Assembly (NCBI GenBank): GCA_037142615.1
Contig: JBAXAI010000010.1
Location: 61,939-85,938, forward strand
Direction of reading: 5' to 3'
Length of the DNA stretch: 24,000 nucleotides
Source of the DNA: Spirochaetales bacterium
GTDB taxonomy: Bacteria > Spirochaetota > Spirochaetia > JABEVK01
The number at the start of each line of letters is the position of its first letter. Positions within the stretch are counted from its first letter, which is position 1. Positions 2,600 through 24,000 of this stretch are shown here, piece by piece. The notes under the pieces were generated by a model. The model had not been told where the DNA came from. It worked only from the letters and a program-made list of their open reading frames with translations, and did no database searches. The position numbers were made by a program, and so were the translations under genes.

Positions 2600-3538
2600 T
2601 CAATCGTACAGCAGGGGAGCCAGGTCGGGCGAGTCGATGTTGGTCTTGTCGTACCACTTGAAGCCGGTGTCGGTGACCTTGGGAAGGTAAACACCCTTGA
2701 CGGCCATGAAGGCGGACATCACGGTCTTGTAGCCCATGCCCACGGGGTCTTGGGTAATGGCGCCGTACTCAGCACCGGAGCGGATCGCATCTTTCTGCTG
2801 CTTGCCAGCGTCGTAACCGATGACGATGACCTTGGTGCGCTTCATTTCCTTGACGCCGTTGAGCACGCCGATGATGGAGCCTTCGTTGGCACCAAAGAAG
2901 CCCTTCAGGTTGGGGTAGGCCTGGAGAATCGACTTGGCGATGTCGGTCGACTTCAGCTGGTCACCACCACCGTACTGAACCGAAACAACCTTGATGTTGG
3001 GGTACTTCTTCATGCCCAGCAGGAACCCGTCGCGGCGGTCGATACCGGTGCGGCTGGTCTGGTCATGCACGATCACGGCGACTTCACCAGCGTTGCCGAT
3101 GGCCTTGGCCATCATGTCGGCGGCGAGGCCGGCGGCGGCGATGTTGTCGGTGGTACAGGTGGTCAACGGAATGTCGGAATCGACACCGGAGTCAAACGCG
3201 ATCACGGGAATACCGGCGGCCTGGGCCTTCTTCAGCAAGGGAATGGCGGCCTTGCTGTCGACTGCGGCGAAACCAATGGCGGTAGGCTTCTTGGCAATGG
3301 CGGCGGCGAGCTGGTCCATTTGCTTGTCAACCATGGCTTCCGTCTCGGGGCCTTCGAAGGTGATGGTGATGCCCAAGTCCTTGCCGGCTCTTTCGGCGCC
3401 GAGTTGGACAGCCTTCCAGAACTGGTGCTGGAATCCCTTCGAAACCAAGGGAACGTACATCGTCTCGGCGCTGACAACCGCGCTGGACAGAACCAAGGAC
3501 AGGATGGTCAGAATCGTGAACAATTTCTTGCTCTTCAT
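2600..3538 (-). CDS. Periplasmic monosaccharide-binding protein of a CUT2 ABC transporter (RbsB/RhaS-like); substrate probably L-rhamnose or L-fucose by context
   Basis: 312-aa ORF with a GGAGG SD. N-terminal signal peptide MKSKKLFTILTILSLVLSSAVVSA|E with no lipobox Cys. Type I periplasmic binding fold pattern: VSKGFQHQFW, IAFDSGV, GEVAVI.HDQTS.TG..R..GF, VIGYDAG. Confidence 0.85.
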   Translation of the reverse strand: MKSKKLFTILTILSLVLSSAVVSAETMYVPLVSKGFQHQFWKAVQLGAERAGKDLGITITFEGPETEAMVDKQMDQLAAAIAKKPTAIGFAAVDSKAAIPLLKKAQAAGIPVIAFDSGVDSDIPLTTCTTDNIAAAGLAADMMAKAIGNAGEVAVIVHDQTSRTGIDRRDGFLLGMKKYPNIKVVSVQYGGGDQLKSTDIAKSILQAYPNLKGFFGANEGSIIGVLNGVKEMKRTKVIVIGYDAGKQQKDAIRSGAEYGAITQDPVGMGYKTVMSAFMAVKGVYLPKVTDTGFKWYDKTNIDSPDLAPLLYD

Positions 3539-3608
3539 ACAAATACCTCCAAACTATTTCCCCCCTCCATACGGAAGGGTTTGAACACAACTTGAACGCG
3601 GTGGCGAA

Positions 3609-6194: not shown

Positions 6195-6248
6195 AAAATC
6201 CGGCACAGAGTGTTTAAAATCCGGCGCGCGGGAACCCCATGCTATACT
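6195..6248. promoter_or_regulatory. Phased direct repeats (candidate AraC-type response-regulator binding site) plus a -10-like TATACT in the divergent transporter/sensor intergenic region
   Basis: Exact 10-mer AAAATCCGGC at 6195-6204 and 6216-6225, 21 bp centre to centre. Further AATCC cores start at 6182 and 6190. The proximal copy ends at 6225, 17 nt before TATACT (6243-6248), so it occupies the -35 position of a plus-strand promoter. The ATG of the response regulator is at 6259. Confidence 0.4.
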
Positions 6249-6258
6249 TCACGATGCC

Positions 6259-10504: not shown

Positions 10505-11503
10505 TCAAGGCGTGATGGTGCCGTCCAGGTCCCAAAGGTCTTCCCAGGTCTGACCCTCTTTCCACAGAAACACCTGACCCTTGATCAGGCGGCAGTTGCG
10601 GTCAATTCGCGATAGGGCCTGAACTTCCTGGGCGGTGAGGGGCAGCGCGATGCTGGCCTCGAGATTGGCCTGAAGGTTCTTGGCCTTCACCGAGAACGGG
10701 ATGACGACATGCCCCCGCTGAAGGCCCCATTGCAAGCAGACCGTCACGGGGTGGACGCCGTGCTGCTTGGCGATCTCGACAACCACGGGGTCGTCCATGT
10801 CGACGGTGTCTTCGGGGGTGCGGTCGCGTTCGGGCCGACCAGGCGAGCCGATGGGGCTGTAACCGATGGGCACCACCCCGTTCTTGACCACGAATTGGAG
10901 CAGTTCTGGCTGCTGAAAGTGCGGGTGCAGCTCCATTTCGTTGACAGCGGGTTTGATCCTGGCGTCGCGAAGCACAAGTTCCAGCTTGGGGATGGTCATG
11001 TTGCTGGTGCCGATCGAGCGCACCAGGCCTTGGTCGACCAAAGACTCGAGCTTGCGCCAGATCTTCATGTAGTCGGCGTGAAGGTAGGGCTTGGCGTCGT
11101 GGGCACGGCTGGTGACATCCACCCCGGGCGCGTGGTGGTTGGGAAAAGGCCAATGGATCAAGTACAGGTCGAGGTAGTCCAAGCCCAGATCGCGCAGAGA
11201 CTTTTCGAAGGCGGGGATGACGTCGGCCTCGGCGTGTTTGTTGTTCCACAGCTTCGAGGTGATGAACAGATCTTCGCGTTTGACGCCGCCGGCCATCACC
11301 TGCTTCAGGGAAGCCCCGACCAGACGCTCGTTGTTGTACACCGCCGCGCAGTCGAAGTGACGGTAGCCGAGGCGGGCCGCCTCGAGCACGGCGGCTGCCA
11401 CCTGCTCGCCCGAAACCGCGTCGGAACCGAAGGTGCCCATGCCGACCACCGGAATGCGATGGCCGTTGGAAAAGGTTTGAAAGGGAACGTCTTTGGGGTT
11501 CAT
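10505..11503 (-). CDS. Aldo/keto reductase family oxidoreductase (NADPH-dependent aldehyde/sugar reductase); candidate L-lactaldehyde or sugar reductase
   Basis: Internal ATG at 11503 preceded by AAGGAGG; it overlaps the upstream gene stop (ATGA). 332 aa. AKR catalytic tetrad context: HFDCAAVYNNE (D, Y), ITSKLW (K), LIHWP (H). The upstream Arg/Pro/Gly-rich part of the 506-aa track ORF was rejected. Confidence 0.85.
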   Translation of the reverse strand: MNPKDVPFQTFSNGHRIPVVGMGTFGSDAVSGEQVAAAVLEAARLGYRHFDCAAVYNNERLVGASLKQVMAGGVKREDLFITSKLWNNKHAEADVIPAFEKSLRDLGLDYLDLYLIHWPFPNHHAPGVDVTSRAHDAKPYLHADYMKIWRKLESLVDQGLVRSIGTSNMTIPKLELVLRDARIKPAVNEMELHPHFQQPELLQFVVKNGVVPIGYSPIGSPGRPERDRTPEDTVDMDDPVVVEIAKQHGVHPVTVCLQWGLQRGHVVIPFSVKAKNLQANLEASIALPLTAQEVQALSRIDRNCRLIKGQVFLWKEGQTWEDLWDLDGTITP

Positions 11504-12429
11504 AGAGCCTCCTTGAGGTAGGGTTTCAGCGCCTCGACCAGCGCCGGTTCTTCGGCCGGGGTTCGTCCGGCGGGCAGGTTCACCCCGTCGAACAGATACC
11601 AGGTTTCCTGGTGATCGACACCCTGACCGGGCTCCAAGCGGGCCAGGGGTCCCAGAGTCTCTACTTCCAGAAAGCCGGGCATGGTGAAGAACTCGCAGTT
11701 GCACCCCTGGTCGGGGTAGGTCTGTCCCTCGCGGTAGGCGAAGGTCTTGACGAACAGCTGACGGCCTAGCTCGTAGGCCGCCCAGCCCTGGCGGTTGCCC
11801 AGGCCGAACTTCTGCTTGGTGGGCAGCGACTCGTCCTGGCGGAACTGGAGCAGGCGGTCGCCCCAGGTGAAGCGGGGATCGTTCATCCGGGTGAAGCGCC
11901 ACAGCACCACCGGCCGCGCCGGGGTAAACGACACACCGTGGTCGACAAACGGTTCCTGCGGAACCAGCGCCCGCCCGCCGGCCGCCATCACGCTCAGCGC
12001 CCACGGCGCCACGTCGATGGCCCACAGGTTTTCGTTCACCAGGCGGTGGTTCAGGTGCACCCGACCGTCTTCCAGCCGCAGTGTGATTTCCTTGCGAATC
12101 CCCGTGGTCGGTTCGGTCTTGCTCAGCAAGGTGAGCGTTGCCCCGTCCCAGCGGTGCTCCACCGGGTCAAAGTCGGGCGCGTAGGTTCGCGGAGCCACTT
12201 CGGGGGCATGCCAGAGCCGGTGCCCACCAAAGCTCAGCCATTCGTTGCCACTGGTTTGGCCCAGGTGCTCAGCGAACTCCTTGAACAGGTTTTGCCCGCC
12301 CACGGTGCCAAACCGGATGACCCGGGGCCCCACGTCGAGGGTGACCACCAGTTCGACGCGGCCGTCGGTGAGCCTGACACAGTTCGGCCACCCCCCGTAA
12401 GCGAGCTTCTCCAGCCGGGATGCGCTCAT
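11500..12429 (-). CDS. Conserved hypothetical protein, probably galactose-mutarotase-like fold (DUF4380-like); function unknown
   Basis: Internal ATG at 12429 overlaps the ADH stop (ATGA); 309 aa. Compositionally normal, unlike the rejected N-terminal extension. The FGGHRLWHAPE motif and predicted all-beta character recall DUF4380 / aldose-epimerase-like proteins; this assignment is from memory only. Confidence 0.55.
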   Translation of the reverse strand: MSASRLEKLAYGGWPNCVRLTDGRVELVVTLDVGPRVIRFGTVGGQNLFKEFAEHLGQTSGNEWLSFGGHRLWHAPEVAPRTYAPDFDPVEHRWDGATLTLLSKTEPTTGIRKEITLRLEDGRVHLNHRLVNENLWAIDVAPWALSVMAAGGRALVPQEPFVDHGVSFTPARPVVLWRFTRMNDPRFTWGDRLLQFRQDESLPTKQKFGLGNRQGWAAYELGRQLFVKTFAYREGQTYPDQGCNCEFFTMPGFLEVETLGPLARLEPGQGVDHQETWYLFDGVNLPAGRTPAEEPALVEALKPYLKEAL

Positions 12430-13499
12430 TTGACTTCCTCGTCGAACACCACCGCCACCTTGCCACACTTGCCGCTGGCCATCAGCGAGTACGCGTCGGC
12501 GCAGTTGTCGAGAGTGAACCGGTGGGTGATGAGGGTTTCGGGGTGGATTCCCCAGCGCACGATGCGTTCCACCAGCTCTTCCATGCGCCAGATGTTGGTC
12601 ACCCAACTGCCATAGATGGTCTTCTGGTCGTGGATGATGTCGGCCGAAGGGGCAAACTGCACCGTGCCGCCTTCGCCGATGAAGCAGATTTTTCCCCACT
12701 TGCGCGTGGCCTGGATGCAGGTCAGTCGGGCCTTGTCGTTGGCCGAGCAGTCGATGGCCTTTTCGACGCCGAAGCCGCCGGTCAGCGCCTTCACCTGCGC
12801 CACGTTGTCGGGGCCGGAGGGGAACACGTGGTCGCACAGGCCTTGGTCTTTGGCCAGGGCCAGCCGTTCGGGCACGGTGTCGGTGCCGATCACCAGCTTG
12901 GCTCCCATGGCACGGGCCAGCATGGCGGTGGCCAGGCCGACCGGCCCCAACCCGGTCACCAGCACGGCGTCGTTACCGCTGATGCCGATCTTTTCGAGGC
13001 CTTCGTACACGGTGCCGAACCCGCAGGCCACCTGGGCACCGTCGCTGTAGGTCAGCTCGTCGGGGAGCAGAACCAGGTCCTTTTCTTCGGCCAGCAGGTA
13101 TTCGGCCATGCCACCGTTGCGCTGCCAGCCGTAGGCCCGGCGGTACTTTTCGCTGGTGCAGCTGATCATGTAGCCGCGCCGGCAATCGTTACACACGCCA
13201 CAGCCCGAAATGTGGTACACGATGACGCGGTCACCGGTCTTGAAACGGCGGCAACCAGGGCCTTCCTGCACAATTTGGCCGCAGGGTTCGTGGCCGGCGA
13301 TCATTCCGGTTTGGTAGCCTTCCGGGCCCTTGCCCGTGTGTTCGCGGTAGATGGCGCGGATGTCGGACCCGCAAATCGTCGAGCTCTTGACCCGAATCAG
13401 CACCTCGCCGTGCCCTGGGGTTGGAACCTCGAAGTAGCCCATTTGCACGGTGCTGTTTCCGGGGAGCATGGCCCCGGTCATTTTCTTGGGAATTGTCAT
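12426..13499 (-). CDS. Zinc-dependent medium-chain alcohol/polyol dehydrogenase (sorbitol/threonine dehydrogenase-like)
   Basis: Internal ATG at 13499 preceded by AGGAGG; 357 aa. Catalytic Zn motif CGSD...GHEPCGQIVQEG, structural Zn site GCGVCNDCRRGYMISC, Rossmann motif VLVTGLGPVGL. Confidence 0.87.
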   Translation of the reverse strand: MTIPKKMTGAMLPGNSTVQMGYFEVPTPGHGEVLIRVKSSTICGSDIRAIYREHTGKGPEGYQTGMIAGHEPCGQIVQEGPGCRRFKTGDRVIVYHISGCGVCNDCRRGYMISCTSEKYRRAYGWQRNGGMAEYLLAEEKDLVLLPDELTYSDGAQVACGFGTVYEGLEKIGISGNDAVLVTGLGPVGLATAMLARAMGAKLVIGTDTVPERLALAKDQGLCDHVFPSGPDNVAQVKALTGGFGVEKAIDCSANDKARLTCIQATRKWGKICFIGEGGTVQFAPSADIIHDQKTIYGSWVTNIWRMEELVERIVRWGIHPETLITHRFTLDNCADAYSLMASGKCGKVAVVFDEEVK

Positions 13500-13550
13500 T
13501 GTTTCCTCCTGCTCATAGCGCCATTCTCGACCCGATTCGCGGGGCTGAAC

Positions 13551-13578
13551 ATGGATACCTCTGGCCGAAGGATGGATA
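13551..13578. promoter_or_regulatory. Direct repeat ATGGATA x2 in 21-bp register upstream of the ADH operon (candidate AraC-family site)
   Basis: ATGGATA at 13551-13557 and 13572-13578 (TATCCAT on the coding strand). AT-rich heptamers in a GC-rich 106-bp spacer between the AraC-family gene stop (13606) and the ADH start (13499). Confidence 0.3.
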
Positions 13579-13605
13579 TTTGTGAACCAGGAGCCGGGAG
13601 ACAAC

Positions 13606-14451
13606 TTAGCTGCGCAGGCGTCGAAAGCCCTCGGGCGACTGGCCGTACACGGTTTTGAAGCAGCGGCTGAAATGGTAGGGGTCGTCATACCCGGTGAGCG
13701 CCGCGACCTCCTTGACGAGCAACTGGGGATCGAGCAACAGCGACGCTGCCAGGGCCATCCGGCACTGAACCAGAAACTGATGCGGCGTCTGTTGGTCAAA
13801 CCGGCGGAACAGCCGGGCCAGGTACGACGGCGAAACCCCGCATTCCCGGGCAGCCTGCTCCAGGCCGAAGCCCTGGGTGGCCAGCTCCCGGAGCTTTTCT
13901 TTCAGGGCCCGGAACCGCCCCGAGCCCGGGTCGTTGGGCTGGGCCACGCTGCGGTCGGTGAGCAGCACCAGGATTTGCCGAACGATGAGGGAGCACACTT
14001 CGGCCCGACTGGCCTGCAAACTATCGGCGCTGGCCTTGAGATCTTCGAACAGCCGCGCCAACGCGCCGGTGGCCGTGACCCGGCCAGGTCTGCTCTCGGG
14101 AAACGCCCGGGCAAGCAGTTCGGCCCCGAGTTCACCCGAAAAATCGACAAAGTACTTCACCATCGACGAGGCGGGCGAGGCCTCGATCCGGTGCGCCACC
14201 CCGGGTCCGTAGCAGAACACCGAGCCCGGACCGAGCTCATGGCGGCGGCCCTCGAGCACCAGAACCCCCTGCCCCGAGGCCACAAACTCCAGCGATTGGT
14301 AACGGAAGTTGGCCCGGTCGACCACGTAGGTCGAATCACACACTTCCCGCCCGCCGCAGACCACCGCCAACCCCGAGGTTGGCGCCGGTGAAAGGTCGAG
14401 AAAATAGTAGTCGCCGCGCTGAACCCGCTGGGACAGAAAGTTCGGTTCCAT
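13606..14451 (-). CDS. AraC-family transcriptional regulator (cupin-like N-terminal sensor + AraC HTH)
   Basis: 281-aa ORF. C-terminus GVSPSYLARLFRR....TPHQFL...RM..A..LL........EVAALTGYDDPYHFSRCFK...G.SPEGFR is a canonical AraC double HTH. N-terminal half is AraC-type ligand-binding-like (GDYYFLDL...GREVC). Confidence 0.87.
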   Translation of the reverse strand: MEPNFLSQRVQRGDYYFLDLSPAPTSGLAVVCGGREVCDSTYVVDRANFRYQSLEFVASGQGVLVLEGRRHELGPGSVFCYGPGVAHRIEASPASSMVKYFVDFSGELGAELLARAFPESRPGRVTATGALARLFEDLKASADSLQASRAEVCSLIVRQILVLLTDRSVAQPNDPGSGRFRALKEKLRELATQGFGLEQAARECGVSPSYLARLFRRFDQQTPHQFLVQCRMALAASLLLDPQLLVKEVAALTGYDDPYHFSRCFKTVYGQSPEGFRRLRS

Positions 14452-14530: not shown

Positions 14531-15508
14531 ATGGCGACGATCAAGGATGTGGCCGCTCAGGCGGGAGTTTCGGTGGCCTCGGTGTCGCGGGCGATCAACG
14601 ACCCCTCGTCGGTGGCGCCGGGCACGCTGGAACGCATCAACGCCGTCATCCGCAAAACGGGCTTTGCCCCCAACAAGATCGCGCGCAGCCTCAAGGTGCA
14701 GACCAGCAAGAGCGTGGCGGTGGTGGTGCCCGACATTTCCAACCCCTTTCACCTCAAGGTGATCAAGGGGGCCGAATCGGTGCTGGCCGCGGCGGGCTAC
14801 ACGCTGTTCATCATGGACACCGAAGAAAGCGCCGAAAAGGAAACCCGCTCGCTGCGCGACCTGTTTGACCGGCAGATCGACGGACTGGTGTACATCCCGG
14901 TGCTCACCAACCAGCGCCTGCCCCGGGTTCTGGCGGAGTCGCGCATTCCCTTCGTCGTGGTCGACCGAGCGCTGGGCACCGACCATGACACGGTCCTGAG
15001 CAACAACTTCGCTGGCATCTCCTTGTTGTTGAATCACTTAGCTTCCCTCGGCAAACACCGCATTGCTCTCATCGGTGGCCCGGAAGGGACTCACCTCGGC
15101 CGGGAACGCAACCAGGCCTACCGCACGCTGGTTCGCCAGTACCGGCTCGAAGACAACCCCGCACTGGTGCGCTGCGGCGAGTTCACCATCGAAGCCGGTT
15201 TGGCCCTGGCGCGGCAACTGGTCGCCGAGCAGTTGGCTCCCGAGGCGGTGGTGGCCGCTGCCAACTTTCTGGGCATCGGCGCGCTCAAGGCCTTTCGCGA
15301 CCTCGGGGTCAAGGTGCCCGGCGACCTCGAACTGGTGGTTTTTGACGAAATGGGCGACCTGGTCGATCCCCCGATCACCCACGTGCGCCAGCAGGCCTTT
15401 GAGATGGGCGCCCAGGCCACGCGGTTTCTGCTCGAACGCCTTCAGGGGCTGACGGTCGCGCCCCGCACCGTGCTTTTTGAACCCGTCTTGTATCTCGCGC
15501 CTGCATGA
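14531..15508 (+). CDS. LacI-family transcriptional repressor
   Basis: 325-aa ORF. N-terminus MATIKDVAAQAGVSVASVSRAIN........T.ERI.AVI...GF.PN..ARSL is a LacI HTH. It is followed by a PBP-type effector domain (VAVVVPDISNPF, DGLVYIP, IPFVVVDR, IALIGG). Confidence 0.92.
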   Translation: MATIKDVAAQAGVSVASVSRAINDPSSVAPGTLERINAVIRKTGFAPNKIARSLKVQTSKSVAVVVPDISNPFHLKVIKGAESVLAAAGYTLFIMDTEESAEKETRSLRDLFDRQIDGLVYIPVLTNQRLPRVLAESRIPFVVVDRALGTDHDTVLSNNFAGISLLLNHLASLGKHRIALIGGPEGTHLGRERNQAYRTLVRQYRLEDNPALVRCGEFTIEAGLALARQLVAEQLAPEAVVAAANFLGIGALKAFRDLGVKVPGDLELVVFDEMGDLVDPPITHVRQQAFEMGAQATRFLLERLQGLTVAPRTVLFEPVLYLAPA

Positions 15509-15514
15509 AACTTC

Positions 15515-15543
15515 TTGACAGAATGAGGGGTTGGGTCTAGCCT
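15515..15543 (+). promoter_or_regulatory. Candidate sigma70-type promoter of the fucU operon
   Basis: TTGACA (15515-15520), 17 nt, TAGCCT (15538-15543), in the 77-bp gap between the LacI-family stop and the fucU start. Confidence 0.4.
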
Positions 15544-15548
15544 GTTCA

Positions 15549-15562
15549 TGTAATCGTTTACA
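15549..15562. promoter_or_regulatory. LacI-family operator-like palindrome
   Basis: TGTAATCGTTTACA: 12 of 14 positions are self-complementary, with a central CG. It fits the generic LacI/GalR operator pattern TGnAAnCGnTTnCA and lies 6 nt downstream of the candidate -10 and 24 nt upstream of the fucU ATG. Confidence 0.5.
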
Positions 15563-15585
15563 GTCGCAACAAGAGGAGCCAACAA

Positions 15586-16017
15586 ATGCTGATGGGTATT
15601 TCGCCGGTCATCGGACCGGAACTGCTGGATGTGCTGTTTCGCATGGGGCACGGCGACGAGATCGTGCTGGCCGACGCTTTCTTTACCGGCGACTCGCTGG
15701 GCAAACGGGTCATCCGCGCCGACGGTCTGCGCATTCCCGATCTGTTGGACGGCATACTGCGACTGATCAACCTCGACGACTTCGTCACCGACTCACTGGT
15801 GATCATGGACCCCGTGAAGGGTGACCATCTGGACCCGAACATGGAGAAGACCTACCGCGCGGCGATCGAAAAACACTGGCCCAAGGCCCCCGCCTTCACG
15901 CGGCTGGAGCGCTTCAAGTTCTACGACCGCTCGCGGGCCGCTTTTGCGGTGGTGATGACCGGCGAAACCGTCAAGTACGGCAACATCATTCTCAAGAAAG
16001 GCGTGATTCCCGTATGA
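15586..16017 (+). CDS. fucU: L-fucose mutarotase (RbsD/FucU family)
   Basis: 143-aa ORF with a GAGGAG SD. Collinear with E. coli FucU as recalled: ISP.I.PELL.VL..MGHGDEI...DA.F......G..VIRADGL...DLL..I..L..LD, GE..KYGNI.LKKGV.P. Confidence 0.88.
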   Translation: MLMGISPVIGPELLDVLFRMGHGDEIVLADAFFTGDSLGKRVIRADGLRIPDLLDGILRLINLDDFVTDSLVIMDPVKGDHLDPNMEKTYRAAIEKHWPKAPAFTRLERFKFYDRSRAAFAVVMTGETVKYGNIILKKGVIPV

Positions 16018-17012
16018 CGCCCGAAGTTGTGGCGCACGGAGAGGTCCTGATCGACCTTTCGCAGCACGGTCCGGGCCCCATGGGTTACCCCGCGTACGAG
16101 GCCCTTCCCGGCGGTGGGGTGGCGAACCTGGCGGTCGCGCTGGGGCGCTGGGGCCACCGGGTCGGGTTTTCCGGCCGGGTCGGCGCCGATGCCTTGGGAA
16201 CCTTGCTCCGCAAAGTGCTCGAGGACGGCAAGGTCGACACCAGCCGCCTGACCAGCGATTTTCCGCCCACCACCATGGCCATCGTTTCGCTCGATGCGCA
16301 TGGCGACCGAAGTTTTGACTTCCTGTGGCAGGGAACCAGTTGCGCGGGCCTCCCTGTTGCCCTGGCCAGGCCAACTGGCCAAGCCGACAAAGCGCAACTG
16401 CCCAAGGTCTTCCATTTCAGCACCGTGTCGATGTGCGAGCCCGTGGGTTTTGCCAACAATCTGACCTCGGCACGTTCGCACAAAGAAGCCGGCGTGGCGA
16501 TCAGCTTTGACCCGAACTTCCGCCCCCGCCTTTGGGAGAAGCCCGACGAAGCCCGGCGCGCCATCCACGAGGGCTTGGCCCTGGCCGATATCGTCAAAAT
16601 CAGCGAGGAAGAAGTCGCGTTCGCGCTCGGCGAACCCGCCGGAGACCCGCTCGAACAGGCCAAGAAGCTCAGAGCCCAGCTCGCGAAGGGGAAAACCCAG
16701 CCGGCGCTGCTTTTTGTCACCCTGGGCCCTCAAGGCTGCCTGTGGAACTGCGGTGGCGAATGGGGTCGGCAAACCCCGCCGCCGGTCAAGGTGGTTGATA
16801 CCACGGGCGCCGGCGACTGCTTCATGGCCGGCGTGCTGCATTCGCTGCTGGTGCTGGGCAAGGCGCCTTCGCAGGTTCTCCCCGCCGAAGCGGCCGCCTT
16901 GGCGGCTTTTGGCGTCAAGACCGGTTCCTTAGCCACCACCAAACGGGGTGGCATTCCCTCGATCCCGACTCTCGAAGAAGTGAAAGTAGACAAAGGAGTT
17001 TCTCATGGCTAA
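16014..17012 (+). CDS. PfkB-family carbohydrate kinase (fructokinase-like); substrate unknown
   Basis: 332-aa ORF; ATG overlaps the fucU stop (ATGA). Has the N-terminal GEVLIDL...[16 protein letters not shown] motif and the C-terminal PfkB signature [16 protein letters not shown]. Confidence 0.8.
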
Positions 17013-18807
17013 GAAATCAGCAGGAATCTGGAAGGCGTCGTTGCCCAAAGTTGGCATCCGCCCCACCATCGACGGTCGCCTCAATGGCGTTCGTGAATCG
17101 CTCGAAGAACAGACGATGAACTTGGCCAAGGCGGCCGCAAAGTTCATCAGCAAAAACCTGCGTCATCCCAGCGGTGAACCCGTGGAATGCGTGCTTGCCG
17201 AAACCACCATTGGCGGCGTCAACGAAGCTGCGCGTTGCCGCGAGTACTTCCGCGAACAGGGTGTGGGGCTCACGCTCACCGTCACCACCTGCTGGTGCTA
17301 CGGCAGCGAAACCATGGACATGGATCCCCTGACCCCCAAGGCAGTTTGGGGCTTCAACGGCACTGAGCGCCCCGGCGCGGTGTACTTGGCCGCCGTGTTG
17401 GCTGCTCACGCTCAGAAAGGCCTGCCCTGCTTTGGCATCTACGGCCACGATGTGCAAGAAGCCGGCGACACGAAGATCCCTGCCGACGTGCAAGAGAAGA
17501 TTCTCCGGTTCGTGAAGGCCGGGCTGGCCGTGGCCACGATGCAGGGCCGCAGCTACCTCTCGATGGGCTCGGTGTCGATGGGCATCGCGGGTTCGATCGT
17601 CAACGAGGACTTCTTCCAGAAATACCTGGGCATGCGCAACGAGTTTGTCGACATGAGCGAGTTCACCCGGCGCATCGACGAAGGCATTTACGACCCCGAG
17701 GAGTTCAAAAAGGCTTTGGCCTGGGTGAAGAAGAACTGTCCGCAAGGCCCCGACCTCAACCCGCCCAAGGCCAAGAAGAAGCAAAGCGTGCTCGACAAGG
17801 AATGGGAGTACGTGGTCAAAATGACCCTCATCGCCCGCGACCTGATGGTGGGCAACGCCCGGCTGGCCGAGCTCGGCTTTGGTGAAGAGGCTTTGGGCCG
17901 CAACGCCCTCGCCAGCGGCTTCCAGGGCCAGCGCGCCTGGACCGACCACTCGCCCAACGGCGACTTCCTCGAGGCCATTTTGTGCAGCAGTTTTGACTGG
18001 AACGGCATCCGCGAGGCCTTCGTGGTCGCCACCGAAAACGACAGCCTCAACGGTGTCACGATGCTCTTCAGCCACCTGCTCACCGGCACCGCTCAGGTCT
18101 TTGCCGACGTGCGCACGTACTGGAGTCCCGACTCCGTCAAGCGTGTCACGAACCACAAGCTCGAAGGCCACGCCAAGAACGGCATCATCCACCTGATCAA
18201 CTCGGGGGCCGCCGCGCTCGATGGGGCCGGCGGCATGAAAGACAAGAAGGGCAACAGCGTGATGAAACCCCTGTGGGACATCACCGACGCCGATGTCGAA
18301 GCCTCGCTGAAAGCCACGACCTGGGGACCTGCTATCACCGAATATTTCCGTGGCGGCGGTTTCAGTTCCACCTGGTCGACCGAAGGCGAAATGCCGGTGA
18401 CGCTGGTGCGGCTCAATCATGTGGCTGGCGTGGGCCCCGTGCTTCAGTTGGCCGAAGGCTACACGGTCAACCTGCCCAAGGACGTCGCCAAGACCCTCGA
18501 GGACCGAACCAACCCCACCTGGCCGAGCACTTGGTTTGCTCCGACCCTCACGGGACAGGGTGCCTTCCGCGATGTGTACAGCGTGATGAACAACTGGGGT
18601 GCCAACCATGGTGCCTTCAGCTACGGCCATATCGGCGGCGACTTGATCGCCCTGTGCGCGCTGCTGCGCATCCCCGTGTGCATGCACAACGTGAGCGCCG
18701 AAAAGGTGTTCCGCCCGGCCTCGTGGTCGGCCTTTGGCACCTCGGAACTCGAAGGCGCCGACTACCGCGCCTGCGCCGCGTACGGTCCCTTGTACGGGAG
18801 GGCCTAG
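17005..18807 (+). CDS. fucI: L-fucose isomerase
   Basis: 600-aa ORF with an AAGGAG SD; it overlaps the pfkB end by 8 nt. N-terminus [30 protein letters not shown]......LRH..G..VECV...T.I.G..EAA.C...F...[20 protein letters not shown] matches E. coli FucI nearly residue for residue in these blocks; length is also similar. Confidence 0.93.
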
Positions 18808-18863
18808 CCGTGCGTTGGCTTCAGAGCGTTGCGAGGACGGGTTCCGGCAAAGCCGTTGGCGAA

Positions 18864-18904
18864 GGTCGACCCGGAGCGTATCTGTGATACGTGAGGATTC
18901 GACC
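18864..18904 (+). repeat. Nested inverted repeat / two-stem hairpin in the fucI-rhaB spacer
   Basis: Outer arms GGTCGA (18864-18869) and TCGACC (18899-18904). Inner arms GCGTATC (18876-18882) and GATACGT (18886-18892) with loop TGT. A symmetric 6x6 internal loop lies between them. No U-tract follows. Confidence 0.4.
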
Positions 18905-18955
18905 AAGCCGGCGGCGCAGCCGGAACCCGCCGCAGTAGCTCCGAAGCCAACACAC

Positions 18956-20452
18956 ATGGACCACGTTTTGGCGATTGATCTAGGCGCTTCCGGAGGGCGC
19001 GTCATCCGCGGGACGTGGGACGCGTCGGCCGCAAAGCTGAAGCTCGAGGAAATCCACCGGTTCGCCAACGAGCCGGTGGAGGTTCTGGGCACCCTGCACT
19101 GGGACACCCTCCGGTTGTGGTTCGAGATTCAAAAAGGGGTCCGCGAAGCGGTGAGGACCCTCCCCAAGGGCGAACGTATCCGGTCGCTGGCCGTCGATAC
19201 CTGGGGCGTCGATTTTGGTCTGCTCGATGCGCACGGCCGCTTGCTGGGAAACCCCGTACACTACCGCGACAAGCGGACCGAAGGGCAGGTGGCCAAGCTG
19301 ACGGCTCAATTTGGCGAGGGGGAGCTGTTCCGCCGGGCCGGCACGCAGGACGAGTGGTTCAACACCATTGGTCAGCTTCGCGGCGCTTTGGAGCGCGACC
19401 CTCACTTCCTCGCAGGCGCCAAGGCTCTGCTGTTTTCGCCCGACCTGTTCAACTACTTCTTCTCGGGGCTTAAGGCCGCCGAAAGAACTATCGCGAGCAC
19501 CTCGCAGCTGCTGCAAGCCGGCAAAACCAGTTGGGACAACGAGATCCTGGCCAAGCTGGGGGTTCCGGCGGGTCTGATGCAAGCGGTGCGCGAACCGGGA
19601 ACGTTGCTGGGTCCGGTGTTGCCTGCCGTCGCCGCCGAACTCGGTCTGACCCCTGATACGCAGGTGGCCCTGGTTCCCAGCCACGATACCGAAAGCGCCG
19701 CCTTGGCGGTGCCCACGACTTCGGGCAAGCCCTTTGCCTTTATCAGCTGCGGCACGTGGGCCGTGCTCGGCGCCGAACTGTCTGCGCCCGTGACTTCCGA
19801 AGCCGCAAGGCTTGCCAAGTTTTCGAACGAGGCCGGGGCCTTCGGGACCAACCTGCTGCTGAGCAACATCATGGGCATGTGGCTGGTGCAGGAATGTAAA
19901 CGCTGGTGGGAGCGCGACGGAAAGAAGTTTGGCCATGCCGAGCTCGTCGATTGGGCCGCCCAAGCTCCTTGGGGAGGAAGCCTGATCGATGTGAATGACC
20001 CCCTGTTTTCGACCCCCGGCGACATGCCAGGACGCCTCGTGGACTACTGCATGAAGAAGGGCCTACCGGTACCCGAGGGTCGCGGCGCGGTGGTCCGCTG
20101 TGTGCTCGAAAGTCTGGCTTGCGAGTTCCGCCGCAGTCTGGAGACCATGGAAAAGGTGACCGGTCAGGCGTTTGCCGAACTGTGGCTCGTCGGTGGCGGC
20201 TCGCAAAACCAACTGCTGTGCCAACTCACGGCCGACCTCACAGGCCGAACCGTGCTCACGGGGCCCATCGAGACCACCGCGCTGGGCAACATTGCGGCGC
20301 AGTTTGTGGCCTTGGGAACCTTCGGGTCGGCGAGGGAGGCCCGTCAGGCGGTTTCCAGCTCGTTTGGTGTGTCGCACTACGAACCGGGCAACCGCCTGTT
20401 GGCCGCCGACACGTACCGGCGGTGGTTGGCCGTTACTTCTTCGAATGGTTGA
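18956..20452 (+). CDS. rhaB: Rhamnulokinase (FGGY family, RhaB-type)
   Basis: In-frame ATG at 18956, 498 aa. Blocks shared with E. coli RhaB as recalled: AIDLGASGGRV, EIHRF.N, DTWGVDFGLLD, YRD.RT, PSHDTESAA, CGTW..LG, SNEAG..G...L..NIMGMWL.QE, ES.A......L, L..VGGG.QN.LL.QL.AD..G..V..GP.E...LGN. The upstream 74 codons of the track ORF were rejected as spacer. Confidence 0.87.
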   Translation: MDHVLAIDLGASGGRVIRGTWDASAAKLKLEEIHRFANEPVEVLGTLHWDTLRLWFEIQKGVREAVRTLPKGERIRSLAVDTWGVDFGLLDAHGRLLGNPVHYRDKRTEGQVAKLTAQFGEGELFRRAGTQDEWFNTIGQLRGALERDPHFLAGAKALLFSPDLFNYFFSGLKAAERTIASTSQLLQAGKTSWDNEILAKLGVPAGLMQAVREPGTLLGPVLPAVAAELGLTPDTQVALVPSHDTESAALAVPTTSGKPFAFISCGTWAVLGAELSAPVTSEAARLAKFSNEAGAFGTNLLLSNIMGMWLVQECKRWWERDGKKFGHAELVDWAAQAPWGGSLIDVNDPLFSTPGDMPGRLVDYCMKKGLPVPEGRGAVVRCVLESLACEFRRSLETMEKVTGQAFAELWLVGGGSQNQLLCQLTADLTGRTVLTGPIETTALGNIAAQFVALGTFGSAREARQAVSSSFGVSHYEPGNRLLAADTYRRWLAVTSSNG

Positions 20453-20957
20453 CCGGAGGGACTCCGATCTTCTCGGACAAGGCAAAAAGGACGGCAGTGA
20501 CGACGAAGGTCATGTGAATGCCGACCATCCAGGCCAGGTGTTCCGTTGACCAGTCCTTCAGATTCAGGAAAGCCCCCAAGAGGTTGATCCCTGACAACGC
20601 TACGATGGAGCCGATGAGCTTGAGCTTCAGGCCGGCGAAGTCCACCTCGCCCATCCAGGAAGGTCGATCCGGAGACTCGTCAGCAGCACCGATCTTCGAA
20701 ACGAAGTTCTCGTAGCCACTGAAGATGACCAGGATCATGAGGTTGCCCAATAGTGTCATGTCGATGAGGCTGAGGATCCCCAGAAGCAAGTACGTCTGGT
20801 CCTTTTCGAGCACATTGAGGGCAAAGCGAAAGAACTCCTCGCCGAACTTGAACATCAGCAACAGAAGGGCGAGGACGAGCCCCAGGTAGAAGGGAGCCAG
20901 CAGCCACCGACTGGCAAAGATCAATTTTTCCGTCGATTCCTCAATGAACTTGCGCAT
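20433..20957 (-). CDS. yqhA: YqhA-family (UPF0114) inner-membrane protein
   Basis: 174-aa ORF with an AAGGAG SD. ASRWLLAPFYLGL, LIDMTL.GNL...V.FSGYENFVS and later TM segments parallel E. coli YqhA as recalled. Confidence 0.8.
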   Translation of the reverse strand: MRKFIEESTEKLIFASRWLLAPFYLGLVLALLLLMFKFGEEFFRFALNVLEKDQTYLLLGILSLIDMTLLGNLMILVIFSGYENFVSKIGAADESPDRPSWMGEVDFAGLKLKLIGSIVALSGINLLGAFLNLKDWSTEHLAWMVGIHMTFVVTAVLFALSEKIGVPPVNHSKK

Positions 20958-21034: not shown

Positions 21035-21850
21035 TTACACCCAGCGCTCCCGCAGCAATTCCATCATGTGCACGTTGAGCTCCCACTGTTCGGCAACGGG
21101 TTGGGCCGTGTACGGGAGCGCCGGCATGTACGGCGCCGGGCCAAACTCGGGCGTCACGGTGAAGGTGGCAGCCCCGGCCTGCTGGTGACGTGTGAACACT
21201 TTGTCCCACCAAGTGAGGTGTGCCTCGACGGCCGGCTGCCACTCGGGAGCCCTGGGATCGCTCACCTGGGGGCCTTGGGCGTGACCCACCCGGGCGTGCA
21301 GGTGGTCGGTGCGTTCTATGGCCAGCGCCAGCGACTCGGCCTGGTCTTCAAGCAGCGATTCGGACACGTTGCACCAATGCGAAAAGTCGGCCGTGAGGCG
21401 CAGTTGCGGGTCGTCTCGCAAAAAACCGGCGGTGACGGCGGCCGCGTACGCGAACTTGGCCCTGTGGGTCTCGTGCACGATTTTGACACCGGTTTGAGCC
21501 GAAACCTCGGCCGCCACGTCGAGGATGCGGCGGTTGAGCTCGGCCGGGAACCAGTCCCTCCCCGTCTGCGAATTGATGAACAACGGCTTGGCGGCCGCAA
21601 CCCACTCGAGGTGCGCCCGGTACTCGCGCAGGTGAGCCAGGGGGTCGGCCGTGGTCGTCTCCCAATGTTGGCCGATCAACTGTAGCCCCTGCGCTGCCAG
21701 CGCCCCGAGAATCTCCTCGGTGCCCTTGCGGTCGTCGAGCGGTAGGCTGCACTCGACCCCGTGGAAGCCCGCTTGGCGAACCTTGCGCGCAAAGTCTGCC
21801 CACGAAAGGCTTTCCGAGCCCCAGCGTGGGCAGAAGAACTGAAGTTCCAT
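21035..21850 (-). CDS. Xylose-isomerase-like TIM-barrel protein (sugar phosphate isomerase/epimerase family, AP-endonuclease-2 fold)
   Basis: 271-aa ORF starting 4 nt after the methyltransferase stop. Family-typical pattern: short N-terminal strand then G..GVE, VHETH, LTADFSHW, H.HARVG, PEFGP. The family call is from memory of motif spacing. Confidence 0.7.
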   Translation of the reverse strand: MELQFFCPRWGSESLSWADFARKVRQAGFHGVECSLPLDDRKGTEEILGALAAQGLQLIGQHWETTTADPLAHLREYRAHLEWVAAAKPLFINSQTGRDWFPAELNRRILDVAAEVSAQTGVKIVHETHRAKFAYAAAVTAGFLRDDPQLRLTADFSHWCNVSESLLEDQAESLALAIERTDHLHARVGHAQGPQVSDPRAPEWQPAVEAHLTWWDKVFTRHQQAGAATFTVTPEFGPAPYMPALPYTAQPVAEQWELNVHMMELLRERWV

Positions 21851-21854
21851 GGTG

Positions 21855-22931
21855 CTACTTCGACCCGCAGCCGCAGGTGGTGAAGGCCATCACCTTGGCC
21901 ATGATGGTCTTTTCGTAGCCCGGCATCGAGAGCACGTCGCATTCGCTGCCAATGATGAACGGGTGGCCCGAGGCTTTGAGTTTGCTTTCAATCTCGCACA
22001 CCAGGTCGGGAATGCCGCTCAAGGGGACCTCTTCGTCGGAATAGAACTTCTTGGTAGGGAGGTTGCCGTACAGCACCGTCGTCTTGGGCACCAAGGGCTC
22101 GGCCTCCCACAGCTTGACCGGGCTGCCGAAGCTGATGATCACCGGGTCGAGCACCGCAAACGAGGCGATCATCTCGGGCGTGAGCGAGCCGCAGTCGTGG
22201 AAAATCAGGTCGGTGCCGTGCTGGTTGAACAACGCTTTGAGCCTCAGGTTGGGCTCGATGACGAAGGTTTGGTACACGGTGCCACCCTCGGCAATCTGCT
22301 TGGGTGAAAAATACACGAGGTTGGCCGCGGGTTCGCACAAAAAGATGGCTTTGGCACCGGCCTTGATCTGCGCCAGCACGCAGGCGTGCACGGTCTTTTC
22401 GCACAGGTCCATCAGCGACGCCAGCAGCCCGACTTCGTCGTCGTCCTCGGGCGCGACACCACTGCCCGCCATGTAGATGGGCGTGATGGGGTCTTTCATC
22501 AGCTTGGTCATCAGCGAGAACGGGCCGATGCTCATGCCGATGGGCACTTCCTTGCCCCCAGCCGCGAACGCCTTGGCAATCGCCGCCAGCGAGTCGCAGT
22601 TGGCCTTGATGCGCGGCGAGCCAAGCACATCCATGGCAGCCACCTTGGCCACCAACGCGGGGTCGGGCTTGTCGTGAAAATGGTAGGTGGGAATGGCGGC
22701 CGCCGCAACGCCCATGGTGCGCAGCATCACGTCTTTTTCGAGCGTGAGGTCCATGATGGGCAGCGCCAGCGGGCTATCGAAGCGGCGGGCGGTTTCGAGC
22801 ATCACTTCGGCCAGGCGTTTGCCGTCGAGCAGAATGGCTTCGGGGTCCGATTTTTCGTGCAGGACGAGATGCGTCGCCACGGGCAACCGTTTTCCGGAAG
22901 CTGCGAGCGAGAGATAAAACGATCGGTCCAT
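21855..22931 (-). CDS. URO-D-fold methyltransferase of the MtaA/CmuA family (corrinoid-dependent, Zn-binding)
   Basis: 358-aa ORF with an AAGGAG SD, 14 nt after the corrinoid-protein stop. URO-D/MtaA-like layout (PIMDLT...E, GPFSL, F.CEP.A). Contains the H-x-C ... C zinc motif pattern of MtaA-type enzymes (IFHDCG, then GSECD 84 residues later). Unusual C-terminal TTCGCGSK. Confidence 0.78.
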   Translation of the reverse strand: MDRSFYLSLAASGKRLPVATHLVLHEKSDPEAILLDGKRLAEVMLETARRFDSPLALPIMDLTLEKDVMLRTMGVAAAAIPTYHFHDKPDPALVAKVAAMDVLGSPRIKANCDSLAAIAKAFAAGGKEVPIGMSIGPFSLMTKLMKDPITPIYMAGSGVAPEDDDEVGLLASLMDLCEKTVHACVLAQIKAGAKAIFLCEPAANLVYFSPKQIAEGGTVYQTFVIEPNLRLKALFNQHGTDLIFHDCGSLTPEMIASFAVLDPVIISFGSPVKLWEAEPLVPKTTVLYGNLPTKKFYSDEEVPLSGIPDLVCEIESKLKASGHPFIIGSECDVLSMPGYEKTIMAKVMAFTTCGCGSK

Positions 22932-22945
22932 GGGACGCTCCTTGG

Positions 22946-23578
22946 TCAGCTGACGAGTTCGATGGCCTTGTCGCCAGCCGAAGCGGCGTCGGCCGTGTAC
23001 GCGTCGGCTCCGATGCTGGCGCAGAAGCTGTCGGTGATGGGGGCACCACCGATCATCACCTTGACCTGCTTGCGCACGCCGGCGGCTTCGAGGGCTTCAA
23101 TGACGGTCTTCATTTCGTTCATGGTGGTCGTCAACAGCGCCGAGAGCGCCACGATCTGGGGCTTGTGCTCGTGCACGGCAGCCACAAACTTTTCCGCCGA
23201 GACGTCGACGCCGAGGTCGATCACTTCGAGGCCTTTGCCTTCCATCATCATGCGCACCAGGTTCTTGCCGATGTCGTGCAGGTCGCCTTTGACGGTACCG
23301 AGAATCACCTTGCCGGTGGCTTTGACTCCGGCTGTCACCAAATAGGGCTTGAGCAGTGCGGTGCCCTGATTCATGGCGCGGGCGGCGATGAGCACTTCGG
23401 GCACGTAGACCTCGTTGCGCTTGAACTTGCCGCCGATGATGTTCATGCCGGCCATCAGGCCGTCTTCGAGAATGCTCTTGGCCGCAATGCCCTGGTCGAT
23501 GGCCTGCTGCACCAGCTCTTTCACTTCTTTGGCTTTACCCTTCTGCAAGAAGGTGGAAATGTCGTCGAGAATTGCCAT
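22946..23578 (-). CDS. Corrinoid (cobalamin-binding) protein, MtaC/MtbC/MtvC-like
   Basis: 210-aa ORF with a GGAGGA SD. N-terminal four-helix cap region (B12-binding_2-like). Canonical B12 motif set: DxHxxG (GDLHDIGKN), SxL (LSALLTTT), GG (MIGGAP). Confidence 0.9.
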   Translation of the reverse strand: MAILDDISTFLQKGKAKEVKELVQQAIDQGIAAKSILEDGLMAGMNIIGGKFKRNEVYVPEVLIAARAMNQGTALLKPYLVTAGVKATGKVILGTVKGDLHDIGKNLVRMMMEGKGLEVIDLGVDVSAEKFVAAVHEHKPQIVALSALLTTTMNEMKTVIEALEAAGVRKQVKVMIGGAPITDSFCASIGADAYTADAASAGDKAIELVS

Positions 23579-23650
23579 GCTATTCCTCCGTTTATCGTCC
23601 GTTTCTTCTGTTCAGCTTAAAGCAAGCGGTGACTGCCGTATTGCACTCCC

Positions 23651-24000
23651 TTACGCTTTTTGGGACAAATTGCGGTTCGTGAGCCAGGCTGCCAGGCCCG
23701 CCGTAGGCAAGACCACAGCCCGGCTGCGGAGTTTCTGGTACGCCGCCAAGCCGGGGCCGCCGGTAAAGTCGCGCAGGGCCATGGGTTGGTCTTCCAAAAG
23801 GACCAGTTCGCGGGCTTCGGCGGCCGCCTCGAGGTTGCGCAGGTTTTGGGCACCGACCACCAGGTTGCCGACGATCACCAGGTCGGCCTCGCGCACCAAA
23901 CGGCAGTTGTCGGCGTGGGCCGTGTCGGAAAGGGGTGAGAACGGCGGCGAGACCACGCTGACCAAGTCGTAGACGCCGGCCACGTACAGGTCGCTGTCGC
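23651..24000 (-). CDS. Hypothetical protein, 3' part only (ORF stays open to the window edge)
   Basis: The reading frame stays open from 24000 down to the stop at 23651; the track's GTG at 23983 is probably internal. About 116 C-terminal residues have normal composition, and I recognised no motif. It is 72 bp upstream of the corrinoid-protein gene on the same strand. Confidence 0.4.
   Translation of the reverse strand, partial: DSDLYVAGVYDLVSVVSPPFSPLSDTAHADNCRLVREADLVIVGNLVVGAQNLRNLEAAAEARELVLLEDQPMALRDFTGGPGLAAYQKLRSRAVVLPTAGLAAWLTNRNLSQKA

Follow-up and report, generated by a model that had tools for sequence, protein, structure and literature searches.

The window analyzed here is the whole 24,000-nucleotide stretch of contig JBAXAI010000010.1, from an uncultured Spirochaetales bacterium, and three minus-strand genes near its right-hand end encode a corrinoid (B12-binding) methyl-carrier protein, a divergent zinc methyltransferase of the URO-D/MtaA superfamily, hereafter URO-D_q, and a xylose-isomerase-like TIM-barrel protein. 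These three genes are the distal end of a B12-dependent methyl-transfer gene cluster. Comparison with related genomes indicates that the corrinoid/URO-D_q pair is a conserved, uncharacterized module found mainly in glycan degraders, and that the TIM-barrel protein stands outside this module and has partners of its own, namely an oxygenase and sugar transporters. We tentatively propose, with a confidence that stops just short of even, that within a module of oxygenase and TIM barrel for methylated carbohydrates the corrinoid block takes the part of the oxygenase without needing oxygen. The components are of known kinds; their combination is new.

The preliminary description of this DNA reported three closely packed minus-strand genes with corrinoid, URO-D and TIM-barrel products; its coordinates were exact, and profile searches returned the same domains. 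The corrinoid protein (22946..23578, 210 amino acids) matches PF02607 (72.7 bits) and PF02310 (98.8 bits) in Pfam, contains the motifs GDLHDIG (DxHxxG), SALL (SxL) and GGAP (GG), and has as its top NCBIfam match the MtgC-type corrinoid protein, at 233 bits and hence below the cut-off of 370. Its gene is separated by 14 nucleotides from that of URO-D_q (21855..22931, 358 amino acids; PF01208 URO-D, 52.6 bits), which in turn lies 4 nucleotides from the TIM-barrel gene (21035..21850, 271 amino acids). The TIM-barrel protein scored 30.0 bits against PF01261, slightly under the gathering score of 31.1, but the fold is upheld by a structural model with a predicted local distance difference test (pLDDT) score of 93.3, whose nearest structures are UlaE and ketose 3-epimerases (template modelling (TM) scores 0.62-0.67). 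A search of NCBIfam with this protein gave no match even at E = 10.

Sequence past base 24000 was read from L001, a 122-kb metagenome contig with identical sequence (L-numbered loci are the related metagenome or genome stretches that were compared). On the strand of the triad the genes follow one another in the order FA_desaturase-type oxygenase, RACo, PocR/AraC regulator, DUF6951, DUF2284, adenosylcobalamin (AdoCbl) riboswitch, BtuF, BtuC, BtuD, corrinoid protein, URO-D_q and TIM barrel. The gene at the head (L001:557-1576) encodes an unfused FA_desaturase-family protein. The RACo-type reductive activase (L001:1623-3212; Fer2, Raco_middle and RACo_C_ter domains; 294 bits against the AcsV-type model) is encoded on the same strand about 6 kb upstream of the window edge, and the regulator shares its PocR plus AraC domain architecture with MtaR, which activates the methanol-methyltransferase operon of acetogens (PMC13602510). 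DUF6951 and DUF2284, the latter a predicted metal-binding protein (together L001:4416-5275), hold the place between activase or regulator and corrinoid protein that DUF1638 holds in most related clusters (e.g. L098:1234-2101), and this common position suggests that they substitute for DUF1638 in this genome. The riboswitch (RF01482; L001:5885-6009, or about 26923-27047 in window numbering; 50.8 bits against a gathering score of 50) precedes genes for a BtuF-like binding protein, a FecCD permease and a 424-amino-acid ATPase, which make up a BtuFCD-type B12 importer. The BtuD-like ATPase gene (L001:8007-9281; 344 bits to the NCBIfam model 'corrinoid ABC transporter ATPase') resolves the open reading frame (ORF) that had been listed as unrecognized at the window edge: it does run off the window, and 23651..24000 (-) is its 3' end, comprising the last 116 codons. 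The ATPase carries a C-terminal extension of about 170 amino acids, for which the precomputed annotation gives PF27219 (MJ0874) and the Pfam search no match.

RACo, riboswitch and B12 importer thus bear out the earlier assignment of the genes to a corrinoid methyl-transfer module. The same description had called the system incomplete, which no longer applies to the activase and cobalamin uptake, both encoded beyond base 24000, but does apply to the second, donor-side methyltransferase, none being encoded in the approximately 43 kb that L001, the window and L093 span together. Set against a three-component methyltransferase system, therefore, the cluster has the carrier protein and the reductive activase and, for two methyltransferase activities, one gene, that of URO-D_q. 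The second enzyme may be encoded elsewhere, or URO-D_q may catalyze both half-reactions, by analogy with MtsA, which does so. A promoter scan between the genes of the triad region found 0 promoter-like sites; terminator-like sites between genes were no commoner than in shuffled sequences, and there was no convincing break between btuD, the corrinoid gene, the URO-D_q gene, the TIM-barrel gene and the UPF0114 gene that follows. A riboswitch and btuFCD leading directly into a corrinoid/URO-D_q pair were also seen at L013:5185-5320 and L062:4543-4615, an unusual arrangement in that a B12-dependent enzyme pair stands behind a B12-repressed leader; in L013 the gene right after the riboswitch encodes a BtuR/CobA adenosyltransferase.

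URO-D_q scored 29.3 bits against the MtbA model (cut-off 600), 29.3 against PRK06252 (cut-off 244) and 17.1 against TIGR01463 (cut-off 235). These values, far under the cut-offs, rule it out as a member of the MtaA, MtbA or CmuA groups, in keeping with its earlier presentation as part of a new system. Sequence searches of the PDB with single proteins and with a profile returned nothing significant (URO-D_q profile against MtaA 4AY7, E = 0.11), and Foldseek comparison of an AlphaFold model built from a 20-sequence alignment (pLDDT 91.6) gave TM scores of 0.64-0.69 with HemE and MtaA (4AY7/4AY8). Thousands of relatives exist, every one of them named just 'uroporphyrinogen decarboxylase family'. 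A scan of one genome per species yielded 345, and neighbors within 10 kb were counted in the loci of the best 80 of these. They come from Spirochaetota, Propionivibrio and other Rhodocyclaceae, Verrucomicrobiota, Planctomycetota, Armatimonadota, Kiritimatiellota, Lentisphaerota, Ignavibacteria, Fibrobacterota and Acidobacteriota.

A corrinoid protein was found in 45-46 of the 80 loci, usually encoded directly upstream of URO-D_q; RACo was found in 36, DUF1638 in 35 and a PocR regulator in 22-32. The methyltransferases that accompany the pair are more varied: MtaB (509-554 bits to PF12176) in 20 loci, where it lies between the corrinoid protein and URO-D_q or alongside them, other URO-D paralogues in 23 (49 genes), a protein with the PF02574 homocysteine S-methyltransferase domain in 16, a pterin-binding methyltransferase (PF00809) in 1, and MttB in L007/L020. 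A CobW-like GTPase was present in 6 loci, BtuFCD essentially in L013 alone, and the TIM barrel in 2. Minimal loci such as L041, L071 and L077 hold the regulator, activase genes, the corrinoid protein and URO-D_q as sole methyltransferase. In the Verrucomicrobiota loci L030, L033, L034, L040 and L042 the order is corrinoid protein, MtaB, URO-D_q, PF02574 protein, DUF1638 and RACo, which resembles a MetH-like methionine synthase fed with methanol and supplemented by a further zinc methyltransferase, and for which we found no published description.

These neighborhoods are also what would be expected if the module were a general methyl-transfer hub without any tie to sugars, in which methanol or other small donors would supply the methyl groups and a thiol such as homocysteine would accept them, in the manner of a split MetH or an mta system, with the TIM-barrel gene brought alongside by insertion of the block. 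The split methionine synthase of Phaeobacter and Ruegeria has a RACo- or RamA-like activase, DUF1638 and an MtgC-like corrinoid protein as its set for methyl carriage and reactivation (PMC5764234, PMC12478193). The frequency of PF02574 and MtaB genes, the MtaR-like regulator, the minimal loci in which only regulator, activase genes, corrinoid protein and URO-D_q occur, and the rarity of TIM-barrel genes near URO-D_q (there is none in L013) all agree with such a hub. We regard it as the leading alternative to our proposal, but as less likely than not: the cluster studied here encodes no MtaB, PF02574 or DUF1638 protein, the TIM-barrel gene is just 4 nucleotides from that of URO-D_q in a pairing that recurs in L095, and the repeated company that the TIM-barrel family keeps with corrinoid parts and demethylating oxygenases, described below, is hard to credit to chance.

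The direction in which URO-D_q moves the methyl group can be approached through its predicted zinc ligands. Across 20 family members, aligned at 52-89% identity, H245, C247 and C331 do not vary, and they align with the HxC...C of MtaA-like paralogues, so that URO-D_q is predicted to have an MtaA-type His-Cys-Cys zinc site. S-methyltransferases of the URO-D superfamily have a His-Cys-Cys zinc site, whereas the O-demethylases replace one or both cysteines (Kountz & Balskus, PMC10418091). In a joint alignment URO-D_q and the MtaA-like paralogues showed H-x-C...C, and paralogues encoded in sugar-transporter operons deviated from it, with HSC...H (L006:1067-2308 and L011:1462-2490), HSD...H (L011:4641-5723), HSD...C (L008:8930-9946) or HVD. 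The HVD type is a family of about 360 amino acids without any Pfam or NCBIfam match (L011:3565-4644 (-), L099:1059-2150 (+), L045:8894-9976, L066:8890-9972). Profile comparison ties it to the URO-D superfamily (hhalign probability 93.8%), FHVDGKG taking the place of the HxC motif. Its genes lie in operons of sugar ATP-binding cassette (ABC) transporters, and directly upstream of URO-D_q in Chthonomonadaceae. We regard the HVD type as a candidate new family of donor-side methyltransferases.

As judged from its sequence, URO-D_q is more likely to be the methyl-unloading, thiol-methylating enzyme than a substrate demethylase, because it has the His-Cys-Cys site that the sugar-operon paralogues lack, because it is constant while its partner methyltransferases vary (MtaB, MttB, URO-D paralogues), and because it fills the place that the pterin-binding enzyme occupies in acetogens. 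The converse, that URO-D_q is itself the substrate-side O-demethylase, methylating Co(I) from an O-methyl deoxyhexose while an enzyme encoded elsewhere does the unloading, is favored by its being the sole methyltransferase of the cluster, placed between corrinoid protein and TIM barrel under a ligand-sensing regulator. Donor-side enzymes classically adjoin their corrinoid protein, and in several loci URO-D_q is paired with a PF02574-domain protein that could be the unloading enzyme. MtaB moreover provides a precedent for the activation of an O-methyl donor, methanol, by a cysteine-rich zinc site. We nevertheless consider this role improbable, since the His-Cys-Cys site is of the MtaA type and is missing from the URO-D paralogues of sugar-transporter operons, since URO-D_q is the constant member among variable methyltransferases, and since it is accompanied by MtaB and MttB, whose donor-side roles are for other substrates.

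The second line of evidence comes from the TIM-barrel family, which gave 4831 matches, is 53-83% identical from Bacteroidota to Spirochaetota, and includes among its invariant residues E127, D155, H183/H185 and E235, the typical metal-site pattern of the superfamily. A metagenome scan found 528 relatives, from which 80 loci were compared. A PhyH-type 2-oxoglutarate (2OG) dioxygenase was encoded nearby in 26-29 of these, an FA_desaturase-Rieske-FNR fusion in 10, a sugar-porter protein of the major facilitator superfamily in 9, an AraC regulator in 8 and SusC/SusD in 7; further neighbors included GH2, a GH29 fucosidase and RhaM. Where at least 2.5 kb of sequence was available on each side (28 loci), 15 had one kind of oxygenase, PhyH or FA_desaturase(-Rieske-FNR), within 3.5 kb, and none had both. 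PhyH and the fusion exclude each other (e.g. L106, L109, L111 and L113 as against L103, L134, L147 and L159), as expected for alternative enzymes at the same step. Annotated records of Spirosoma, Paraburkholderia and Bacillus contain the same unit of TIM barrel, PhyH/2OG oxygenase, AraC regulator and sugar transporter.

Both kinds of oxygenase have relatives that are associated with demethylation. FJS and human PHYHD1 are homologues of the PhyH neighbors (profile E ~1e-31), one of which has 44% identity to PHYHD1; both FJS and PHYHD1 were found in 2025 to take the methyl group off 2'-O-methylribonucleosides, releasing formaldehyde (PMC12709175). In the fusion, the Rieske part scored 108 bits against the MocE family, the cut-off of which is 136. 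MocDE is said to be a demethylating oxygenase in rhizopine catabolism, and MocC reportedly a TIM-barrel protein. Genetically, mocDEF and mocC are needed for catabolism of the rhizopine 3-O-methyl-scyllo-inosamine (PMC10107442).

Corrinoid-methyltransferase parts also occur beside the TIM barrel. In L095, from a second spirochaete lineage, the genes for a corrinoid protein, a URO-D_q (80% identical) and a TIM barrel (70% identical) are adjacent. L099 encodes a sugar ABC permease, an HVD-type protein, the FA_desaturase-Rieske-FNR fusion, a mutarotase-like protein, a corrinoid protein, a pterin-binding methyltransferase (306 bits), a GDSL esterase and the TIM barrel, and L145 an MtaA-like URO-D protein, a Met_synt_B12-like protein, a regulator, a sugar ABC transporter, MtaB and the TIM barrel. 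Within L145:2674-8825 MtaB (509 bits) is the last-but-one gene of the sugar-transporter operon, directly ahead of the TIM barrel, and MtaB-family enzymes in these bacteria may act on a substrate other than free methanol. Further corrinoid-methyltransferase parts lie beside the TIM barrel in L108, L101 and L124, and one operon of L182 combines a URO-D protein (401 amino acids), a Fucose_iso_C (FucI-like) protein, GntR, a sugar ABC transporter, an FA_desaturase, the TIM barrel and an aldo-keto reductase. Links to sugar genes and oxygenases are seen from the side of URO-D_q as well: in Propionivibrio (L006/L026) a rhamnose-type ABC transporter and RhaM are joined to a URO-D/corrinoid/RACo/DUF1638/URO-D_q cluster, and L098 holds RACo, DUF1638, corrinoid protein, URO-D_q, the FA_desaturase-Rieske-FNR fusion, AraC and RhaM. 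FA_desaturase and TIM-barrel genes are neighbors in the related spirochaetes L011, L012, L101, L182 and L183, and in the genome studied here the 9.5-kb corrinoid block sits exactly between these two genes. Since 2OG dioxygenases, diiron/Rieske oxygenases and corrinoid parts, which are unrelated to one another, recur beside one orthologous TIM-barrel enzyme and sugar transporters, demethylation is the likeliest chemistry that they share.

Several observations weigh against this proposal. The TIM barrel is within 10 kb of URO-D_q in just 2 of the 80 URO-D_q loci, and URO-D_q is near the TIM barrel in 0 of the 80 TIM-barrel loci; in L013, the closest relative, the TIM-barrel position is taken by an unrelated gene, Exo_endo_phos. 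The triad is thereby ruled out as one conserved unit, and its adjacency could be a by-product of insertion of the block next to the TIM-barrel gene. The donor-side methyltransferase that the proposal calls for is missing from the 43 kb. An AdoCbl riboswitch ahead of a B12-dependent system is unexpected unless an internal promoter is present, and none was detected; many carriers of URO-D_q, furthermore, are aerobes. The unloading role is not secure either, for some loci hold URO-D_q plus an MtaA-like paralogue or a PF02574 protein, the zinc-ligand rule is based on few characterized enzymes, and MtaB activates the oxygen-bound methyl group of methanol with a cysteine-rich site. Of the O-methyl-sugar demethylase that was originally envisaged, the link to carbohydrate demethylation is partly supported at the level of the system, through the neighbors of the TIM-barrel family, but the assignment of that activity to URO-D_q is probably wrong in view of its S-type His-Cys-Cys site.

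The riboswitch and btuFCD immediately upstream, both here and in L013, raise the further idea of cobamide salvage or remodelling, in which the riboswitch would switch uptake on when B12 is scarce, corrinoid protein and URO-D_q would strip the methyl upper ligand from imported methylcobamides to give Co(I) for adenosylation, and the TIM barrel would be a CbiR-like phosphodiesterase that removes the lower ligand. CbiR of Akkermansia muciniphila (PMC7733943) belongs to the same AP-endonuclease-2/xylose-isomerase-like TIM superfamily and is itself encoded beside cobamide genes, and such genes are neighbors in the present cluster (btuFCD) and in Propionivibrio, where a TIM-barrel homologue comes after CobD-, CobC- and CobT-like genes. 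In L013 the unit includes BtuR/CobA, lies beside CbiB, CobD and CobQ-CobT, and has at the TIM-barrel position Exo_endo_phos, a phosphodiesterase fold. Overwhelmingly, however, the contexts of the TIM-barrel family are oxygenase and sugar transport, a Cob gene being present in 1 of the 80 loci; the family is 53-83% identical across phyla, as against about 30% for CbiR homologues; its structural neighbors are ketose epimerases and not endonuclease IV; and URO-D_q modules usually carry RACo, MtaB or other parts of catalytic methyl transfer. We thus rate salvage as very improbable, and the contexts, the conservation, the structural neighbors and the lack of an NCBIfam match, rather than a direct comparison with CbiR, put a CbiR-like identity of the TIM barrel low. 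The Exo_endo_phos gene downstream of URO-D_q in L013 (L013:11266-12156) may be a coincidence or a swap for another phosphodiesterase-type fold, and the same locus encodes an 804-amino-acid CobQ-CobT fusion.

Returning to an oxygen-independent counterpart of the oxygenase, we infer from sequence, predicted structure and gene neighborhood in which direction the methyl group moves, what accepts it, which class of substrate supplies it and what the TIM barrel does, as follows. BtuFCD would import a cobamide that is loaded onto the corrinoid protein, and RACo, with ATP and low-potential electrons, would return inactive Co(II) to Co(I). Co(I) would be methylated from an O-methylated carbohydrate (a sugar or cyclitol) by a donor-side methyltransferase that this cluster does not encode, for which the 'O-type' URO-D paralogues or the MtaB-like enzymes of sugar-transporter operons in related genomes are candidates. 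From methyl-Co(III), URO-D_q would then hand the methyl group on to a thiol by way of a zinc-bound thiolate at its His-Cys-Cys site. Bacteria, to our knowledge, as a rule make no coenzyme M, so the acceptor must be a different one, and homocysteine, sulfide or a small cofactor thiol are candidates. The TIM barrel would carry out a metal-dependent, enediolate-type step (isomerization, epimerization or elimination) on the carbohydrate skeleton, the step that the same family would perform beside oxygen-dependent demethylases in aerobes. Possible substrates are not confined to methylated deoxyhexoses and include an O-methyl cyclitol, another methylated sugar or methanol, even methanol released by the TIM barrel. 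Whether donor enzymes of the URO-D-superfamily or MtaB-like type in sugar-transporter operons, a shared corrinoid protein with RACo, and URO-D_q as a new zinc subfamily delivering to a thiol together make up a widespread, undescribed, O2-free B12 route that O-demethylates sugars and cyclitols, feeds the TIM-barrel enzyme to which aerobes join PHYHD1-like or MocDEF-like oxygenases, and has its core in the window is a bolder proposition, which we hold with a confidence that lies perceptibly below even.

The closest parallels among known systems are partial. With the methanol:coenzyme M system (MtaB, MtaC, MtaA, RamA) the cluster shares a carrier composed of cap and Rossmann B12 domain, a URO-D-fold enzyme with His-Cys-Cys site and an ATP-dependent reductive activase, but URO-D_q is extremely divergent from MtaA/MtbA and the window has no MtaB. 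Acetogen and Desulfitobacterium O-demethylases (MtvABC, OdmABCD), like the acetogen mta operon, follow the same three-component logic with a RACE/RACo activase, and further likenesses are the URO-D-superfamily donor enzymes in related loci, the MtaR-like regulator and the corrinoid plus pterin-binding pair of L099. Their unloading enzyme, however, is pterin-binding and forms methyl-tetrahydrofolate, whereas here a zinc URO-D enzyme takes its place, and their substrates are aromatic methyl ethers and methanol, not carbohydrates. Consistent with this difference, the cluster contains no PF00809 gene and URO-D_q retains both cysteines. The split methionine synthase of Phaeobacter and Ruegeria (PF02574, pterin-binding module, MtgC corrinoid protein, RamA-like protein, DUF1638) resembles the URO-D_q loci in that corrinoid protein, RACo or DUF1638 accompanies URO-D_q in 35-45 of the 80, and PF02574 in 16; it differs in being without a URO-D_q counterpart, and the related loci are without its pterin-binding module. 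Of its parts the cluster at the window has just the corrinoid protein and RACo, with DUF6951/DUF2284 at the DUF1638 position.

Type 1 mlp clusters, proposed to handle methyl-sulfur or methyl-selenium compounds (Kountz & Balskus, bioRxiv 2023, PMC10418091), are similar in occurring outside methanogens and in combining MtaA-like His-Cys-Cys enzymes with a corrinoid protein and RACE in the absence of a tetrahydrofolate methyltransferase. They require at least Mlp2 and Mlp3, which are about 30% identical to MtaA/MtbA, and they are found in obligate anaerobes, mostly Firmicutes (PMC10418091). The cluster described here, by contrast, has a single, far more divergent URO-D enzyme and is set apart by that description. 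In addition, URO-D_q clusters occur in Spirochaetota, the Planctomycetes-Verrucomicrobia-Chlamydiae (PVC) group, Armatimonadota and Betaproteobacteria, and have DUF1638, PocR, MtaB and sugar-gene neighbors, none of which is mentioned in PMC10418091. The oxidative O-demethylases (cytochrome P450 acting on 6-O-methyl-galactose, PHYHD1/FJS, MocDEF) have in common with the system the proposed task, that of freeing a sugar-like molecule of its O-methyl group for normal catabolism, and PHYHD1/FJS-like and MocDEF-like oxygenases are the conserved neighbors of the TIM-barrel family; they use O2 and release formaldehyde, whereas here the methyl group would pass intact via cobalt without O2.

Methyl ethers on sugars, examples of which are 2-O-methylfucose, 2-O-methylxylose, 3-O-methylrhamnose, 4-O-methylglucuronate, 6-O-methylgalactose and the O-methyl inositols, block ordinary catabolism. 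The removal routes known to us are all oxygen-dependent, by P450 and, very recently, PHYHD1-type dioxygenases, and we know of none described for anaerobic glycan degraders. Full-text literature searches returned no paper on corrinoid- or cobalamin-dependent demethylation of methylated sugars in the collection searched. Should the proposal be correct, it would account for the orphan 'uroporphyrinogen decarboxylase family' and MtaB genes in genomes of the PVC group, spirochaetes and Armatimonadota, add a B12 demand to polysaccharide degradation, and direct sugar-derived methyl groups into thiol or methionine pools instead of formaldehyde. Regardless of the reading adopted, two widespread uncharacterized modules are defined, one consisting of the corrinoid protein and URO-D_q (with RACo, DUF1638 and PocR) and the other of TIM barrel, oxygenase and sugar transporter.

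The remaining features of the window concern its sugar genes and the gene that follows the triad. A fucose-type island (14531..20452 (+)) encodes a LacI regulator, FucU mutarotase, PfkB kinase, FucI isomerase and FGGY kinase according to Pfam, and the gene calls of the contig agree; the rhamnose genes comprise RhaA, an aldolase-like gene and a CUT2 ABC transporter, to which RhaM and a rhamnulokinase-like gene are added past the window edge. The deoxyhexose genes beside which the module had been placed are therefore real, but the fucose island is convergent with the triad, on the opposite strand and with the UPF0114 gene in between, and forms a separate operon. Triad and fucose genes are linked by adjacency alone, and FucI also adjoins the FA_desaturase-TIM pair in L011 and L012. 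The UPF0114 membrane protein (20433..20957 (-); PF03350, 120 bits; TIGR00645) is encoded on the strand of the TIM-barrel gene, 77 nucleotides downstream of it, and may be the last gene of the transcription unit of the triad; no terminator was detected between the two. UPF0114 is not at the corresponding position in L011 and L012.

Two kinases are encoded in the fucose operon (15586-20452 (+)), PfkB between FucU and FucI and FGGY after FucI; taken from its first start codon, the FGGY ORF overlaps the end of fucI, and the contig gene call starts later (522 amino acids). Three window ORFs, at 2495-3595 (+), 6214-7308 (-) and 12420-13658 (+), were considered as a second methyltransferase and dismissed as antisense artefacts of GC-rich sequence. 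Together with the N-terminal half of the ORF at 10505-12025 (-), they have no family matches and low-complexity translations, and are antisense or over-extended. The actual genes in these places are those of a sugar-binding protein (2600-3538 (-)), a response regulator ending at 7770 (+), a minus-strand zinc alcohol dehydrogenase and an aldo-keto reductase of about 332 amino acids.

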